This document shows, in pieces, positions 37-7,075 of a DNA stretch of 20,102 bases (position 1 is its first letter; each line of letters starts with the position of its first letter). Under the pieces are notes generated by a model. That model was not told where the DNA came from, did no database searches, and saw only the letters and a list, made by a program, of their open reading frames with translations. The position numbers and the translations under genes are program-made. The stretch comes from Pyrobaculum sp. (GTDB lineage Archaea; Thermoproteota; Thermoprotei; Thermoproteales; Thermoproteaceae): contig JBKBOT010000029.1 of assembly GCA_046293555.1 (NCBI GenBank), positions 1-20,102 on the forward strand. The letters run 5' to 3'.

Positions 37-208
37 AATCCTCCACGTCGCCTCTAAACTCCTCAAGCGTGGCGGAACCTCCCTTAAGCCTCACGATATA
101 TCTGGTGCCACATGTGGGACAGCTGGCAATCTCGCCGTCCATCACGTCGCTGGGGAGCTCGAACTCCGAGCCACAGACGTTACACTGAACTACCAGCTTC
201 TGGCTCAT
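26..208 (-). CDS. lysW: LysW amino-group carrier protein (Zn ribbon)
   Basis: CNVC...CPTC motifs, acidic composition, C-terminus EDYGQ (canonical EDWGE), next to lysZ/lysY. Start placed at ATG 208, 27 nt from the start of the TATA box at 235, rather than at 217. Confidence 0.9.
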   Translation of the reverse strand: MSQKLVVQCNVCGSEFELPSDVMDGEIASCPTCGTRYIVRLKGGSATLEEFRGDVEDYGQ

Positions 209-227
209 GGGGGACATGTGGGACCTA

Positions 228-240
228 TATATAAACTTAA
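228..240 (-). promoter_or_regulatory. Internal TATA promoter for lysW and the downstream gene, overlapping the lysZ stop codon
   Basis: Minus strand TTAAG-TTTATATA, with ATG 27 nt downstream of the TATA start (leaderless geometry). Confidence 0.7.
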
Positions 241-1010: not shown

Positions 1011-2062
1011 ACCGGCGCCAGCGGCGTCTGCCCAAGCCCCTCGTCTTCTGGAAAGCCCATGGCTATGTTAAAGGCCTGTACCGCCTGCCCCGCTGCGCCC
1101 CGCACCAGGTTGTCTATAGCGGCGAAAGTCACCACGCGGCTTAGCCTGACGTCTAGCTCAAAGCCTATATCCGCCATGTTTGACCCCAGTACGTACTTCA
1201 CGTTGGGGTATCTAGACAGCCCCAGCCGGTCTTTCACAAGGCGGATAAACCTGGAGTCGCCGTAGAGAGACCGGTAGTATTTCCACATGTCGGCCTCCGT
1301 GGGGAGCCTCTCTGTATACACGTGGCCAGAGGCGAAGATGCCCCTCACCAGGTCGACGGCGTGTGGGGTAAAGGCCACCCTCACGGGCCTTCCAGCCAGT
1401 AGGCTTAGCTCCTGCTCGATCTCGGCAATGTGGCGGTGGTGTACAGGCTCGTAGGGCCTCACCACATATGTCCTAAAGCTATGTAGATCCACCACGGAGC
1501 CCTCGGCCCCCGCGCCGCTGGAGCCAATCTTGGCGTCTACTACAGGCGGCGTCTGGCCGACAACGCCGTGTTTAGCCAGGGGGGCCAACATGAGGATAGA
1601 CGCCGTGGCCATACAGCCCGGGATAGCCACCAGCCTCGCCCCAACGAGCTCCTGTCTATGTAACTCCGGCAGGCCGTAAACAGCTTTAGCCAGGAGGTCT
1701 GGATATGGATGCGGCTGGGGCCACCTGTACCACTCCACATATGCGTCCGGGTCCTTTAGCCTAAAGTCTGCGCTGAGGTCAAACACCGCGGCGCCGGATT
1801 CATATAACGTGGGCACCCATTTTACCGACTCGCCGTGGGGGAGGGCGAGGAAGACCACATCTGCCTTCAACGCGGCGTCGACCGTGGGCTCTACGAACTT
1901 GAGCTGGGTGAAGCCCCGGAGGTGTGGATGTACCCTATAGACGTACTCCCCCCTGAACTTTCTAGAGGTGGCGCAAGCCACCTCCACCTCCCCGTGTTGG
2001 AGGAGGAGTCTCAACAGCTCCCCCCCAGTGAAGCCAGAGGCGCCTACAATACAGACCCTCAT
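1007..2062 (-). CDS. lysY: [LysW]-aminoadipyl/glutamyl-phosphate reductase (ArgC family)
   Basis: GASGFTG Rossmann motif, LALPHG, DLSADFR, YGLPE, PGC active site, [19 protein letters not shown]. Confidence 0.95.
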
Positions 2063-2729
2063 AGCAGCTCGGCCAACAGGAGTGCCTCCTCTCTATCTAG
2101 AGGCGGCACGGGGTCCACGTCTATGACGTACCACCTCTCCCCATAGTCGCCCAGCGTCACCCTGGCGTATTGAAGCTCCAGGTAGGCCAACAGGTCTGCC
2201 ACAACGCCGACTGCGTTTCTGGCGGTGGCAAATACGGTCTTTACGCCGCGGGGCCTCGGCACCACTATAGACGCCCTGGCTAGGGGGTTTTTCATATACA
2301 TCCGGTGCTCCACCACGCTTTTTGCCCCCTCCACGCTTGTCACCACGCCGTCTAGGCCAAGCCTCCAGGCGGTTAGTAAAAGCCAGGGCCGCTCCACCTC
2401 CACCTTCTCCACGATGGCGTCAGATGAGATAATGGCGTGAGGCGGGCCGAACCTCTGTATCCAATAGGCCCTATTGAGGGCAGAGATTATAGAGGTGGGG
2501 GGGTTGACAACCCTCCTGGCCATAGAGCCATACGCCACGGCGAGGTAGGGATTTCGAGTTCGCAACACGGCGGCGTCTAGTACCCCACTTATGGCCACCT
2601 CGGAGATGTTTAACACAACTGCCTTCAGGCCTCTGGCGGAGAGAGCCTCAGCTATATACTTCTCGGAGATCGTGGGGCTGTCTGTAAGGATGTAAATCGC
2701 CCCACTTTCCCCTCTGGCCCCGAGTCCAT
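2059..2729 (-). CDS. Degenerate LysX/ArgX (RimK ATP-grasp)-like protein, about 223 aa, requiring a -1 frameshift near the start
   Basis: The frame of the 2616 ORF stays open upstream (AIYILTDSPTISEKYIAEALSARG, LysX-like N-terminus) with no ATG/GTG/TTG. EGAKSVVEHRMYMKN resembles LysX/ArgX. The GSWG loop and EVN motif are replaced (LGLDG, DVD). The leaderless ATG 2729 is out of frame. Confidence 0.7.
2652..2729 (-). promoter_or_regulatory. Frame-0 leader ORF MDSGPEGKVGRFTSLQTAPRSPRSI* carrying three tandem NNG-GGG-(Pro/Lys/Arg) putative -1 shift sites
   Basis: ATG GAC TCG GGG CCA GAG GGG AAA GTG GGG CGA TTT ... TAG (2654-2652). Each G-GGG slip lands in the lysX-like frame. Confidence 0.75.
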
Positions 2730-2748: not shown

Positions 2749-2779
2749 TATATAAACTTTTGTAGAAAAAAGTTAAATA
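2749..2779. promoter_or_regulatory. Compact back-to-back divergent promoter pair
   Basis: Minus AAAAG-TTTATATA (2756-2749) and plus AAAAAA-GTTAAATA (2772-2779). Each TATA start lies exactly 27 nt from an ATG (2729 and 2799). Confidence 0.8.
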
Positions 2780-2798: not shown

Positions 2799-2831
2799 AT
2801 GGATTCGGGGACAGCTCGCTACGTTGTGTGA
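2799..2831 (+). promoter_or_regulatory. Frame-0 leader ORF MDSGTARYVV* with a TCG-GGG-ACA(Thr) putative -1 shift site
   Basis: ATG GAT TCG GGG ACA GCT CGC TAC GTT GTG TGA. A -1 slip gives MDSG-DSSLRCVICG in the thrC frame. Confidence 0.75.
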
Positions 2832-3937
2832 TCTGCGGCGCCGAGTACGCCCCAGATTACCGACTCTATAGGTGCCCCAAATGTGGCGGCGTCCTGGAGG
2901 TAGTAGTTAAAGACAGGTACTGGGCCCCCTCGGGGAGAGGCGTGTGGCGATACGCCACAATGTTGCCACTAAGGCGCGGGGTGACGGCGGGGGAGGGAAA
3001 CACGCCGCTGGTGGAGTCCAGACTGGCGCCGGGGCTATACGTCAAATACGAGGGAGTCAACCCCACCGGCAGCTTTAAGGACCGGGGGATGGCCCTGGGG
3101 ATAACTGTGGCGAGAGAAAGCGGTGCAGACAAGGTGGTAGTGGCGTCTACAGGAAACACCGCCGCCTCAGTTGCCGCATATGCCGCCAGAGCCGGCATGA
3201 GGTGTTTTGTGGTACTCCCCAGAGGCAACGTGGCTAGAGGCAAGTTGGTACAGGCGGCTCTACACGGCGCAGAGATCGTGATGGTCAACGGCCTTTTCGA
3301 CAAGGCGCTGGAGTACGTCCTCGCCTACGGCACTAAATACGCCTACCCCCTCAACAGTTTTAACCCCTGGCGTCTAGAGGGACAGAAGACCACCGCCTTT
3401 GAGATATATGAGGAGTTAGGCTGTCCGGACTACGTGATAGTCCCTGTGGGAAATGCCGGCAACATCTCGGCCATCTGGAAGGGATTTAGAGAGCTGGCGG
3501 AGCTGGGGCTTTGCCACAAGCTGCCCAAAATGGTGGGCGTGCAGGCAGAGGGAGCGGCCCCGCTGGCCAAGGCGTGGGAGTTCGGGAGAGATACCCCCGT
3601 GTTTGTAGACGAGCCAGAGACAGTGGCCACAGCCATAAAGATAGGCAAGCCTATAAACTGGCCAAAGGCACTGGCGGCGGTAAGAGAGTCCGGCGGCTTC
3701 TTCACCACCGTGTCAGACGTCGAGATCCTAAAGGCACAGAGGCTGCTAGCCACGAGAGACGGGCTGGGGGCAGAGCCCGCCGGCGCCGCCCCCATCGCCG
3801 CCGCGTTGAAATTAAGGCTGCCGGGAACTGTGGCGGCCGTGGTGACCGGCCACGCCCTTAAAGACCCAGACGTGGTGGAGATAGAGGCCAGAGAGGTGAG
3901 AAATGCAGACGAGCTGGTAGAGCTGCTGGAAAGATGA
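2799..3937 (+). CDS. thrC: Threonine synthase (about 379 aa via -1 frameshift; the in-frame GTG at 2828 would lack the first Zn-ribbon Cys)
   Basis: NPTGSFKDRG PLP-lysine motif, ASTGNT, EGQKT, PVGNAGN, TGHALKD; N-terminal RCVIC...CPKC Zn ribbon begins upstream of 2828. Confidence 0.93.
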
Positions 3938-4914
3938 AGCCCGTCATAAAGATCGGCGGGTCCCTCCTGCGGACACCCGGCGATTTCCTCAAGGCGGCCA
4001 ACCACGTGTCGACATACAGGACGCCGGTGGTGGTGGTATCTGCGGTAAAGGGCGTTACAGACATGTTGATAGAGCTGGAAAAAACGCGGAGTTACCTCCT
4101 GTACGAGGAGATACTCCACAGACATATGTACATAGCGAGGCAGCTGGGGGTAGAGGAGAGAATAGCCGGCCTCCTGAAGGAGCTTGAGTCAAGCCTCAAG
4201 CTCCCCAAGGCGCCGTGGGCGGCAGACCACTTCGCCTCTTTTGGCGAGAGGCTTTCAGCCGCCGTCCTCCACGGCGTTTTGGAAAAACTAGGCCACCCCG
4301 CCAGGCTCTACATGGCGCCGATACTGACAGACAGCAATTTCGGCAACGCCTACCCCATACGGCTTGAACAAAAAGACGAGATTGTCCAACACGACGGCGT
4401 GGCGGTAGTCACCGGGTTTATTGGCAGAGACAAGGAGGGGAGATACACCACCCTGGGGCGAGGCGGTAGTGACTACACGGCGACATATATAGGCAGGGAG
4501 ATAGGCGCCAGAAAGGTGTCATTAGTGACGGACGCCCCCGGCGTCATGACTGCAGACCCACAGGAGGTAGAAGACGCCGAGGTGCTCTCCATGATGTCTA
4601 TAGACGAGGCCATAGAGGCCGCCAGGGCAGGGGCAAAGAACTTCCACCCAAAGACCTTCCTCCCAGCTATAGAAGGCGGCATGGCGGTAGAGGTCAAAAG
4701 CTACCACTCCAGGGGGACGCTCATAGCCCACATATATGCCCCACCGCCATATAAGCTAGTCACCAGATGTGGACAGGGCAGCTGCGTAGTGGGGCTGGCG
4801 GTAGAGGAGTTGACAAAACTGGGGGGCATACCTATAGGCCGCCACACCGCAAAACTGGCCATACCCCCACTACAGGCACATGAATATATAATAAAGCCCT
4901 ACTGGAAAAAATAG
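3934..4914 (+). CDS. lysC: Aspartate kinase (short, no clear ACT domains)
   Basis: KIGGS, VVVSA, SFGERLSA, TGFIG, TTLGRGGSDYTA, TADP, HPKT; ATGA overlap with thrC. Confidence 0.92.
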   Translation: MKPVIKIGGSLLRTPGDFLKAANHVSTYRTPVVVVSAVKGVTDMLIELEKTRSYLLYEEILHRHMYIARQLGVEERIAGLLKELESSLKLPKAPWAADHFASFGERLSAAVLHGVLEKLGHPARLYMAPILTDSNFGNAYPIRLEQKDEIVQHDGVAVVTGFIGRDKEGRYTTLGRGGSDYTATYIGREIGARKVSLVTDAPGVMTADPQEVEDAEVLSMMSIDEAIEAARAGAKNFHPKTFLPAIEGGMAVEVKSYHSRGTLIAHIYAPPPYKLVTRCGQGSCVVGLAVEELTKLGGIPIGRHTAKLAIPPLQAHEYIIKPYWKK

Positions 4915-5150: not shown

Positions 5151-6173
5151 ATGGATCGCCTCAAGACATATATATTAGGGGCCACTGGCCTAGTGGGACA
5201 GAGATATGTCCAGATGTTGGCCAAACACCCGTGGTTCGAGGTAGTAGGCCTCGCCGCCTCTGAGAAAAGCGCCGGAAAAACCCTGCCTCAGGCGGGGTGG
5301 GCACTAGAAGAGCCACCTCCTCCACAACTAGCCGAAATTAAGATAGAGAAGTTAGACCCAGAAAAAGTGCCCAAGGTGGATTTTATCTTCTCCGCGCTGC
5401 CCAGCGAGGTGGCAGCTAAGGTAGAGCCACAACTGGCGACCCGGGGGCATGTGGTGGTATCAAACGCCAGTAACATGAGGCTCGACCCAGACGTGCCGCT
5501 GGTGGTACCAGAGATAAATCCAGACGACTTAAAGCTCGTCGAGGAACAGAGACGAGGGAGGGGGTGGAGGGGGGCAGTGGTGAAAAAACCTAACTGCACT
5601 ACCACAATCTTGAACCTCCCCCTAAAGCCCATATTGGACAAGTGGGGCATCTCTAGGCTATATGTCGCCACCATGCAAGCCGTCAGCGGGGCGGGGTACT
5701 CCGGAGTCCCCTCCATGGCCATAATAGACAACCTTGTGCCATACATAAGGGGGGAGGAGGAGAAGGTGGTGGCAGAGACCAGAAAGATACTGAGGCGGGA
5801 GATAGACATGGCTGTCACCACCACGAGGGTGCCGGTGCTTGACGGCCACACAGAGGTGGTATATGTGGAGACTGAGAGAGACTTCGAGATTGAAGCAGTG
5901 GCGGAAGCCCTGGCGAACTTCAAGGGGCTTCCGCAAGAGTTAAGACTCCCCACGGCGCCAGAGAGGCCGGTAGAGGTGAGAACACAGTTGGACAGACCTC
6001 AGCCTAGGCTAGACCGCTGGGCCGGCGGCGGCATGGCGGTGGTGGTGGGCCGCTTGCGGAAACTAGCGGCGAGAAGACTGGCCTTTGTGGTACTTGGTCA
6101 CAACACGGTGCGTGGGGCTGCCGGCAACTCTATACTTACTGCAGAACTCATGGCGAGGACGGGAGCGACATGA
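5151..6173 (+). CDS. asd: Aspartate-semialdehyde dehydrogenase
   Basis: GATGLVG, PLVVPEIN, PNCTT catalytic Cys, QAVSGAG, RVPVLDGH, HNTVRGAAG. Start at ATG 5151, downstream of AATATATA at 5125. Confidence 0.95.
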   Translation: MDRLKTYILGATGLVGQRYVQMLAKHPWFEVVGLAASEKSAGKTLPQAGWALEEPPPPQLAEIKIEKLDPEKVPKVDFIFSALPSEVAAKVEPQLATRGHVVVSNASNMRLDPDVPLVVPEINPDDLKLVEEQRRGRGWRGAVVKKPNCTTTILNLPLKPILDKWGISRLYVATMQAVSGAGYSGVPSMAIIDNLVPYIRGEEEKVVAETRKILRREIDMAVTTTRVPVLDGHTEVVYVETERDFEIEAVAEALANFKGLPQELRLPTAPERPVEVRTQLDRPQPRLDRWAGGGMAVVVGRLRKLAARRLAFVVLGHNTVRGAAGNSILTAELMARTGAT

Positions 6174-7075
6174 TCCTCCTCTTTGGCTTCGGCGGGGTGG
6201 GGAGGACATACGCCCAGCTGTTATACCAAAAGACTGGGCTTAGGCTATGTGGCGTTTTTGACAGCAAAGGGGGGGTGGTGAAAAAAGACGGCTTTAACCA
6301 CGACGAGGTTAAAAGGCTTTTAGAGACGCCGAGAGGCGGCGTGTCGGCCGCCGGGGTGGGGCGGTTGGCCCACATAGATGAGGCGTTGGAGTACTGCCAG
6401 GTGGTAGTAGATGTCTCTCCTCCAAACTACCGCGACGGGGAGCCTTCCGCCAGTCTTTACAAAAAGGCGCTAGCTAAAGGGCTTATAGTAGTGACTGCCA
6501 ACAAGGCGCCGTTGGCGTTATACTTCCAACAATACGGCGGAAGGGTTTACTACAAGGCCACAGTGATGGCGGGAACCCCCTTGATAGACCTCCTAAAGGG
6601 GCTTTACCCCCAGGAGGTCAAGTCTGTGAGGGGGATACTAAACGGCAGTACTAATTACATCCTCACCCGGGTTTATAAAGACGGCGTGGCGTATGAAAAA
6701 GCGCTAGAAGAGGCCAGGGAGAGGGGTATATTGGAGCCAGACCCCGCCCTAGACCTAGAGGGAGTGGATCCAGCCGCCAAGCTGGTAATTATTGCCAACA
6801 CTCTCGGCATGTCGTTAACTTTGGGGCGGGTGGAGAGGCAGCCCTTAACGCCGTTGGGGCCCATAACTCGTTACATCGCGGCGTTAGAGGGCGGGAGGGC
6901 TTACGTACAGCCAGTAAGACTGCCGCCTGATGACTCACTCCATGTGGATTACACTATGAACGCCGTAGAGATAGCCACAGAGGTTAACACAATTATTGTG
7001 AAGGGCAAGGGGGCAGGCCGGCTGGAGACGGCATATGTGCTACTTAACGACACGTTAAGGGCAGTAGACAGCTAG
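6170..7075 (+). CDS. hom: Homoserine dehydrogenase
   Basis: GFGGVG, VVTANK, ATVMAGTP, GILNGSTNYIL, EPDPALDLEGVDPAAK, GKGAG; ATGA overlap with asd. Confidence 0.93.
   Translation: MILLFGFGGVGRTYAQLLYQKTGLRLCGVFDSKGGVVKKDGFNHDEVKRLLETPRGGVSAAGVGRLAHIDEALEYCQVVVDVSPPNYRDGEPSASLYKKALAKGLIVVTANKAPLALYFQQYGGRVYYKATVMAGTPLIDLLKGLYPQEVKSVRGILNGSTNYILTRVYKDGVAYEKALEEARERGILEPDPALDLEGVDPAAKLVIIANTLGMSLTLGRVERQPLTPLGPITRYIAALEGGRAYVQPVRLPPDDSLHVDYTMNAVEIATEVNTIIVKGKGAGRLETAYVLLNDTLRAVDS

Follow-up and report, generated by a model that had tools for sequence, protein, structure and literature searches.

Leaderless mini-ORFs with end-product codons at amino acid gene heads of Pyrobaculum: a probable -1 slip switch for proline, lysine, and arginine

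Results

A leader ORF with three G-GGG units lies upstream of a LysX/ArgX-like gene

We analyzed a 20,102-nucleotide stretch of DNA from Pyrobaculum sp. (positions 1 to 20,102 of contig JBKBOT010000029.1, GenBank assembly GCA_046293555.1; referred to here as the window) and focused on a short leader open reading frame (ORF) on its minus strand, which heads an operon of LysX-like, LysY, LysZ, and LysW genes and which, as we argue below, probably senses proline, lysine, and arginine. The leader begins with an ATG at 2729-2727, which is followed by GAC and then by three units of 9 nt ending at position 2697, namely TCG GGG CCA (2715-2723), GAG GGG AAA (2706-2714), and GTG GGG CGA (2697-2705). In each unit, a GGG codon preceded by G (hereafter G-GGG) is followed by one codon, for Pro, Lys, and Arg, respectively. 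A preliminary description, made from the letters of the window alone, had reported these three units, and they read exactly as claimed. Also as reported there, translation from this ATG ends, if no slip occurs, at a TAG at 2654-2652, giving a frame of 25 codons. The leader ATG is out of frame (+1) with the enzyme ORF, the -1 frame of the leader (2059-2721, minus strand), which encodes about 213 amino acids of a divergent LysX/ArgX-like, putatively ATP-grasp-like protein in addition to a leader-encoded N terminus. This -1 frame is open from 2772 through its stop at 2061-2059, and the earliest ATG, GTG, or TTG in it is a GTG at 2616. Reading of the frames confirmed that a -1 move at any one of the three G-GGG sites enters this same frame, and the three predicted N termini of the preliminary description (MDSG-ARGESGAI, MDSGPEG-ESGAI, and MDSGPEGKVG-AI) follow from the sequence of both frames. 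Once the ribosome has slipped, the GGG codons that it would meet in the new frame have A or T in front of them (AGA GGG and AGT GGG), so that a second -1 slip would not be favored.

The TATA box of this operon (TTTATATA, 2749-2756, minus strand) begins 27 nt before ATG 2729. When the start of TATA 8-mers was plotted relative to unambiguous ATG starts in this genome (492 genes), the tallest bin was at -27 (22 hits), which places ATG 2729 where the leaderless genes of this organism start. Pyrobaculum aerophilum was the subject of the first description of leaderless transcripts (Slupska et al. 2001, as cited in PMC6028130). The pattern of the three G runs, GGGG-N5-GGGG-N5-GGGG, is found a single time in the window, and 100 shuffles did not produce it. 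The 1.75-Mb genome contains seven copies, counting both strands, and the copy described here is the only one of the seven that our scans of gene heads placed behind a leaderless-type ATG.

The product codons are kept across related loci

We compared the locus with its counterparts in the window's own genus (g1), its sister genus (g3), and two more distant genera (g2 and g4). The LysX-like protein was found at E <= 1e-20 in 17/17 other g1 genomes, 9/9 g3 genomes, 2/2 g2 genomes, and 6/6 g4 genomes, as well as at 23 metagenome loci. The 27 genome loci and the 23 metagenome loci of the g1/g3 type, from which a degenerate copy was excluded, gave a set of 50. In all 50, the ATG is displaced by one base from the frame of the ORF and GGG(G/A) follows it with the frame relation unchanged, the 0-frame ORF overlaps the conserved product of the -1 frame, and, in nearly all, the TATA box lies at -27 from the leader ATG. 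The excluded copy (L035, G002:C1:1204400-1205800) is a second, degenerate LysX-like copy with an internal TAG, the head of which keeps GAG GGG CCA.

The codons that follow G-GGG at the 27 genome loci are CCA-AAA-CGA in 15, AAA-CCA-CGA in 9, CCA-CGA in 1, and CCA only in 1; at one further locus (L007), GGA replaces GGG in unit 1. The order of the units is Lys-Pro-Arg in g3 (9/9 genomes) and Pro-Lys-Arg in g1. Further, 21 of the 23 metagenome loci have CCA-AAA-CGA (one of these, L057, was read by eye owing to an alignment offset). The preliminary description had held that codons varying randomly after GGG among orthologues would speak against its proposal; we find that they are kept as CCA, AAA, and CGA.

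Conservation at the level of single bases is also high in the leader. Among 34 distinct same-genus leaders, 24/33 leader bases are invariant compared with 14.5% of downstream bases, and the conservation of ORF-frame third positions is 0.976 in the leader versus 0.671 downstream; the part of the leader that varies is the two bases before each G-GGG. Downstream of it, the position of the first canonical in-frame start of the LysX-like ORF ranges between +47 and +200 nt relative to the leader ATG (45 distinct related loci), and, in the stretch from +33 to +113, the variable columns at ORF codon positions 1, 2, and 3 number 17/26, 10/27, and 27/27, respectively. A coding signature in the ORF frame directly after the leader, together with an in-frame start that wanders, indicates that the ORF is translated from the leader onward and relies on an ATG in the other frame. 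In the more distant genera, the orthologue starts with a plain GTG (g4) or a plain ATG (g2).

The same design is found at 13 further amino acid gene heads

We scanned the genome for gene heads in which a TATA box and an ATG are followed after at most a few codons by G-GGG and in which the 0-frame is short and the -1 frame long, and named the -1-frame products of the hits with NCBIfam. This revealed 13 further heads with the ATG/G-GGG/-1-frame design, 12 of them outside the window (at C1 (L064), C6 (L066), C9 (L067), C12 (L068), C16 (L069), C20 (L070), C27 (L071), C40 (L072), C8 (L189), and C28 (L190)) and one, that of ThrC, inside it. The codon after G-GGG is TGG at a TrpB2-like enzyme, TrpD, and the tryptophanyl-tRNA synthetase TrpRS; AAA at homocitrate synthase and LysX (where the entire leader is ATG GGG AAA TAG); CTC at isopropylmalate synthase; GTA and then CTC at the acetolactate synthase large subunit; CGA at CarA; ACA at ThrC; TTT at prephenate dehydratase; TAT and then TTT at a transketolase subunit; TAT at an AroD-chorismate mutase fusion; and TGT at a CysK-like pyridoxal phosphate enzyme, the last with a weak family match. 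In every one of these heads, the codon names an end product of the gene's own pathway or the substrate of the synthetase. The joint probability that the codons fall in the product sets, which we assigned from textbook pathways, is roughly 1e-19 with the three-unit leader excluded. Every leader has a leaderless-type ATG, a G-preceded GGG among the first ten codons of the ATG frame, a product-naming codon, an early 0-frame stop, and the enzyme in the -1 frame; the only exception to the G-preceded GGG is the GGA in unit 1 of L007.

The ThrC leader lies next to the three-unit leader in the window and is divergent from it. The TATA-like box of the ThrC operon (GTTAAATA, 2772-2779, plus strand) is 27 nt before ATG 2799, and 15 bp separate it from the TATA box of the LysX-like operon. 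The leader (ATG GAT TCG GGG ACA ... TGA, 2799-2831, plus strand) contains G-GGG at 2807-2810, the Thr codon ACA at 2811-2813, and its 0-frame stop at 2829-2831. ThrC, a threonine synthase (PRK05638), occupies the -1 frame of this leader (2807-3937, plus strand). Read from the slip site, it matches PRK05638 from profile position 2 with 239.4 bits, compared with position 7 and 232.9 bits when read from GTG 2828. All 14 related loci in which the ThrC head is available contain the leader, the Thr codon being ACA or ACG, and in 9 an ATT (Ile) unit stands ahead of the Thr unit. Downstream of ThrC on the plus strand follow aspartate kinase (3934-4914), asd (to 6173), and homoserine dehydrogenase (6170-7075).

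To put the number of heads in perspective, the scan gave 371 raw candidates for G-GGG, of which 29 stand behind a box with 8/8 A/T, compared with 118, 85, and 62 raw candidates and 6, 2, and 5 behind such a box for the control motifs A-AAA, C-CCC, and T-TTT. Fifteen of the 29 are the heads listed here, the three-unit leader included. Six more are internal sites in five genes (a 2-hydroxyacid dehydrogenase, a radical SAM protein, MoeA, a peptidase with two entries, and an adenosine-kinase family member), as the profile alignment begins deep in the family, and were rejected. Two gave no family hit, one on C3 (185 amino acids) and one, partial, on C69. Both of these (L065, G000:C3:81617-82174, and L195, G000:C69:2597-2902, each on the minus strand) have a G-GGG-TGG leader and a good A/T box and are possibly further Trp-controlled genes. 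The last six candidates lay outside the family search, and three of them were judged by eye: two entries are at one C15 gene, where a GTG start lies 2 nt from the ATG, and one is an iron-sulfur protein that looks internal. Two lower-scoring candidates (MetAP and an aCPSF1-like gene) proved internal on checking. Plain starts without a leader were seen at the other three RimK-family genes and at the gene of the ornithine cyclodeaminase (OCD) family.

Other leaders are conserved and can be multivalent

We next consider how far the other leaders extend. Nine families, that of the three-unit leader included, were compared in up to 29 genomes of the taxonomic family, counting loci whose 5' end lay in the fetched DNA, and all nine retain the design. 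The leader codon is CGA in 29/29 loci for CarA, AAA in 28/28 for homocitrate synthase, and CTC in 28/28 for isopropylmalate synthase. It is AAA in 26/28 for LysX, the two others being g2 genomes that have no leader, and TGG in 25/26 for TrpRS, with a plain ATG in one g2 genome. TrpD has TGG in 16/27 loci, all of g1; in g3 (9 loci), the gene is operon-internal with a normal start, and in g2 (2 loci), only a spurious GCA unit was seen. At acetolactate synthase, Val and then Leu units are found in 27/28 loci, of which 14 (among them all 9 of g3) add an Ile unit and one adds a second Val unit, and the codons change synonymously (GTA/GTC/GTT, CTC/CTT, and ATT/ATC), with the amino acid being kept. 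Such multivalent sets at other genes suggest that the three-unit leader is one case of a general multi-input design. We also note that the CarA leader of one genome (G001, L140) has a second unit, G-GGG-CCA (Pro), following its CGA unit.

Both g1 and g3 show the design clearly. In g2 it is partial, being present at CarA, homocitrate synthase, isopropylmalate synthase, and acetolactate synthase and absent at LysX and TrpRS. In five genomes from two other families within the order, the heads of CarA, acetolactate synthase, and TrpRS are without a clear design. Some variants were seen at greater distance. A CarA head of genus g4 (L289) reads ATG ATG GGA CGA GCA TGA out of frame with CarA, a G-GGA-CGA variant, followed by an in-frame ATG and with the TATA spacing off. 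Two TrpRS heads from two genomes of another family (L293 and L294) have in common TTATCTGG, with an out-of-frame GTG and then a TGG codon but no G-GGG, and, at L293, no canonical in-frame start is visible; these heads may use a different recoding or start mechanism.

The shifted-frame product and the LysY, LysZ, and LysW genes

The product of the -1 frame (about 213 amino acids) gave no family at E <= 0.01 in searches of Pfam and NCBIfam, and a profile search of PDB sequences matched ArgX (3vpb) no better than at E = 0.0081, so that no match to the RimK/ATP-grasp sequence family was obtained. An AlphaFold2 model of the protein is of moderate quality (predicted local distance difference test score of 63.8, with residues 77-147 below 50); its best Foldseek matches are ArgX (3vpc and 3vpb), LysX/ArgX (5k2m), and LysX (3vpd), with E values of 1e-6 to 1e-5 and TMq of about 0.6. 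Four true RimK-family genes are found elsewhere in the genome, and alignment of the protein to the genome's true LysX with hhalign is weak (E 0.0013, 19% identity), with about 31 residues of the nucleotide/substrate-loop region missing. As judged from this moderate model and alignment, the product is probably a divergent, non-catalytic LysX/ArgX-like protein. Its homologues in Pyrobaculum or Thermoproteus carry the annotation "hypothetical protein", and their annotated lengths range from 160 to 248 amino acids, a spread that is expected where gene callers cannot find the start.

Downstream on the minus strand follow a LysY/ArgC-type reductase (1007-2062; TIGR01850, 410.2 bits), the ATG of which overlaps the stop of the LysX-like ORF (ATGA), and LysZ, the [LysW]-aminoadipate/[LysW]-glutamate kinase (237-1010; NF010662, 268.3 bits with a cut-off of 194), the ATG of which overlaps the LysY stop in the same manner (ATGA). 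The LysW carrier protein (26-217) matches PF21344 with 36.4 bits and NF041070 with 59.8 bits, which is under the cut-off of 75 of the latter. The preliminary description had placed the leader at the head of a LysW operon. The leader does head the operon, but the first gene behind it encodes the divergent LysX/ArgX-like protein. LysW, for its part, is preceded by a separate TATA box (TTTATATA), which begins 27 nt upstream of the second LysW ATG (208-206; region 206-236, minus strand). LysW is thus probably also transcribed from its own promoter, with a start 3 codons after that of the longest ORF.

Gene content fits a route to proline via LysW and ornithine

The Pro unit led the preliminary description to propose that this organism makes proline via ornithine, with a gene for ornithine cyclodeaminase present and proBA absent. 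The genome does contain a gene of the OCD/mu-crystallin family (112.7 bits, plain start). In the same genome, which is 96% complete, proA gave no hit, nothing over the cut-off was found for proB, and a proC-like match remained below its cut-off (59.8 bits versus 196.75). The presence of the OCD-family gene and the outcome for proA and proB fit proline being made via the LysW/ornithine route. Further, because the other leaders list only products of their own pathway, the conserved CCA unit argues for proline as a product of that route.

Discussion

Overall, we regard it as close to certain that the leader at ATG 2729 is a real, selected recoding or sensing element, and we think it probable that it works as an amino acid-sensing -1 slip switch at the 5' end of a leaderless mRNA, as follows. 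Transcription would begin at or next to ATG 2729, giving a leaderless mRNA on which ribosomes would start at this ATG, in the frame that ends after 25 codons, and would pass the three G-preceded GGG codons. With GGG in the P site and CCA, AAA, or CGA in the A site awaiting a scarce aminoacyl-tRNA, the peptidyl-tRNA-Gly would slide by -1 onto an identical GGG. The ribosome would then continue in the -1 frame and make the LysX/ArgX-like protein, and LysY and LysZ would probably be made too, coupled via the ATGA stop/start overlaps. When proline, lysine, and arginine are all plentiful, most ribosomes would read through and stop at the TAG at 2654-2652, making only a short peptide. As a single slip at any unit would suffice, units in series would amount to OR logic, i.e. 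Pro OR Lys OR Arg, and the result would be negative feedback, in which a scarce amino acid causes a slip and the slip turns on synthesis of the enzyme. This OR logic for the three amino acids had been put forward in the preliminary description, and the codons kept among orthologues and the matching codons at the 13 other heads support it. What the sequences show is the anatomy of the leader, its conservation, the constancy of the codons behind GGG, and the recurrence of the design with matching codons at the 13 other heads; that ribosomes slip, that slipping depends on aminoacyl-tRNA supply, that the downstream genes are coupled to it, and that proline is made from ornithine we infer. Slippage of one tRNA is the simplest mechanism that needs all the features that the leaders share. 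The canonical tandem-slippage heptamer X XXY YYZ fits only in its P-site part (G GGG); after a -1 move, CCA, AAA, and CGA become GCC, GAA, and GCG, which their tRNAs could not read.

A number of observations pull in the other direction. Two of the three sensor codons are not rare in the genome: CCA makes up 23% of Pro codons and AAA 43% of Lys codons. Avoidance of G-GGG in ordinary genes, which would have pointed to inherent slipperiness, was not seen, the observed/expected ratio of NNG-GGG being 1.71; in-frame G-GGG-CCA, -AAA, and -CGA occur 58, 90, and 6 times in the genome compared with 68.8, 123.4, and 9.8 expected, and the first 10 codons of 82 ordinary leaderless-type genes, a sample too small for any conclusion, contain G-GGG at 6/820 codons compared with 10.6 expected. 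Since it is frequent in ordinary genes, the motif alone is not a strong shifter, and the efficiency of slipping must depend on waiting in the A site or on context; the basal efficiency is probably low. The Trp genes, homocitrate synthase, and the AroD fusion have a GTG or TTG in frame, either at the slip site or shortly behind it. One or two units have been lost in two lineages, and the two remaining metagenome loci have CCA instead of CGA in unit 3 in one case and CCA only in the other. With regard to proline, the OCD family also includes enzymes other than ornithine cyclodeaminase, and the completeness of the genome (96%) bears on the missing genes. Finally, RNAalifold revealed no conserved stimulatory RNA structure in the 34 same-genus leaders.

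The only element that RNAalifold returned is a 6-bp GUGGGG/CCCCAC helix with no covariation, and the minimum free energy z-score of the leader in the window is -1.31 compared with shuffles. In this helix (2673-2705, minus strand), GUGGGG of unit 3 can pair with CCCCAC, which lies 20 nt downstream in Ser-Pro-Thr codons of the enzyme; the CCCCAC arm was not seen in the g3 sequences examined by eye. A G-quadruplex that would take in a fourth, upstream G run (2737-2734) was considered and rejected, as that run is not conserved (L012, for example, has three runs only). No conserved alternative structure was found. Between 2500 and 3000, there are no terminator-like sites. A sigma-70-type promoter scan of the same region gave none, a scan that is inapplicable to archaea. 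Runs of aragorn on the genome, with and without introns, returned incomplete tRNA sets with no tRNA-Gly called and were not used.

The most serious alternative, which we nevertheless regard as unlikely, is that the leader is a separate regulatory mini-ORF and that translation of the enzyme begins independently of it, through re-initiation or from a non-canonical or internal codon, without any frameshift, with waiting at the sensor codon altering initiation or mRNA stability. A match between codon and pathway is likewise expected under this arrangement, G-GGG is common in ordinary genes, and the GTG and TTG codons at or near the slip site mean that the Trp genes, homocitrate synthase, and the AroD fusion could also start conventionally. 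However, the only in-frame starts of isopropylmalate synthase, LysX, CarA, and acetolactate synthase fall within the TATA box or upstream of it, and the LysX-like ORF combines a coding signature directly after the leader with the lack of a conserved in-frame start. A separate mini-ORF would also leave unexplained why GGG in the ATG frame is preceded by G and why the enzyme is constantly in the -1 frame. It is similarly improbable, in our judgment, that the -1 frameshift is real but constitutive, with slow or slippery contexts fixing a low level of expression and no sensing of amino acids. Rare codons promote slippage generally, and CGA is the rarest Arg codon of the genome (2% of Arg codons, 1.7 per 1000 codons). 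Yet a device of fixed rate needs no codon that names the product, and 14 leaders, the three-unit leader included, have one; nor would it need Val, Leu, and Ile to be kept at acetolactate synthase despite synonymous changes, or an Ile unit at ThrC.

Two further alternatives concern the nucleic acid itself. If RNA polymerase were to add one G in a GGGG run, the ATG would be in frame with the enzyme in part of the mRNA, and an extra G in any one of the three runs would restore the frame. Nonetheless, RNA-Seq contigs from a related genome align to the G runs of the DNA without any gap (four sequencing runs from one sample of one study, of which X1 spans from the first G run on and X2 to X4 the last one or two G runs), which speaks against frequent slippage, although contigs drop rare variants and a minor fraction may go unseen. 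G runs of four are far shorter than known tracts of transcriptional slippage, which would further leave the conserved codon after each run unexplained, and we hold this mechanism to be very unlikely. Along L016:1000-2400, these contigs leave 1413-1479 uncovered; the LysX-like side begins at 1480-1495 (leader ATG at 1472) and the ThrC side ends at 1386-1412 (ThrC leader ATG at 1398), positions that, in contigs, are uninformative about the ends of the RNA. The window comes from a draft genome in 145 contigs, and a G missing from a homopolymer run through a sequencing error, or a decaying pseudogene, would look alike. This we consider ruled out for practical purposes, since the same layout is present in 27 genome loci, several of them in single-contig genomes, and 23 metagenome loci, and the protein is under purifying selection.

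Returning to the amino acid-sensing slip switch, we think it likely that Pyrobaculum and Thermoproteus control a whole set of amino acid genes in this way, i.e. by leaderless mini-ORFs with an end-product codon after G-GGG, at which shortage leads to a -1 slip, with the leader described here as the three-input version and as genetic evidence for proline from the LysW/ornithine route. The set so controlled would comprise Trp, Lys, Arg, Leu, Val, Ile, Thr, Phe, and Tyr genes and TrpRS and probably those for Cys and Pro. To our knowledge, amino acid control on archaeal leaderless mRNAs is largely an open matter, as these have no 5' untranslated region for a riboswitch, T-box, or attenuator. The leaders would solve this control problem within the first ten codons and, if our reading is true, would be an archaeal translational counterpart of bacterial attenuators and T-boxes and an unreported way to sense amino acid supply. 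"Hungry codon" frameshifting would turn from an artifact of starvation into a designed multi-input sensor, and about 14 genes per genome would join the one archaeal -1 case given in the 2021 review (PMC8211752). The design would also explain the conflicting annotated starts of these genes and would make the end products of a pathway readable from sequence alone, here proline from the LysW/ornithine route and control of ThrC by Ile.

In none of the nearest known systems does a leaderless mini-ORF with product codons have a -1 shift for its output, and we found no report of amino acid-sensing leaders of this design in the full-text literature, with subscription journals and supplementary files outside the coverage. 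Enterobacterial attenuators (trp, thr, ilvGMEDA, ilvBN, and leu) have a leader ORF with codons for the end product, Thr and Ile for thr and Val and Leu (and Ile) for ilv. The leaders described here likewise are short ORFs with product codons, with Ile and Thr at ThrC and Val and Leu (and Ile) at acetolactate synthase. In attenuators, however, the output is termination via alternative hairpins, whereas here none were found, the enzyme ORF overlaps the leader, and the proposed output is a change of frame on a leaderless mRNA. A slowly decoded A-site codon that reports the level of the product, and a P-site slip that turns on the full protein, are also features of the autoregulatory +1 frameshift of prfB (release factor 2), which has relatives in Ty1 and antizyme. 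Those systems use +1, a stop or one rare codon, and a single gene; here, the direction needed is -1 (or +2), and the A site holds a sense codon for an amino acid of the pathway, with two or three such codons in a row in some leaders and with the design spread over a regulon.

The slippery site of fucA1 is a tandem heptamer inside the gene. Like the genes described here, fucA1 is an archaeal gene that needs a -1 shift for its full product, but it is a single gene without amino acid logic. According to the 2021 review of archaeal recoding, fucA1 of Saccharolobus solfataricus is the only reported archaeal -1 frameshift, and the passages of that review referred to here do not mention Pyrobaculum (PMC8211752). 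Passages of a 2016 review of frameshifting mention prfB, as does PMC6028130, and mention neither Pyrobaculum nor crenarchaea (PMC5009743). In mycobacteria, leaderless poly-cysteine short ORFs are described as cysteine-responsive attenuators (bioRxiv 10.1101/834739). These, too, are leaderless short ORFs at an operon head that sense an amino acid via their codons; the system, as described there, is bacterial and attenuates operon expression, and it does not act by a frameshift into an enzyme ORF. The mechanism proposed here is the one-tRNA "hungry codon" -1 frameshifting of starved E. coli, HIV-1 env, and human mitochondria (PMC8211752, citing Gallant and Lindsley 1992), in which the P-site tRNA slips while the A site waits and neither a tandem heptamer nor a stimulatory structure is needed. 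As presented in that passage, which mentions no dedicated conserved leader, it is triggered by aminoacyl-tRNA limitation under starvation, whereas in our proposal conserved leaders in front of many biosynthetic genes have it as their designed output.

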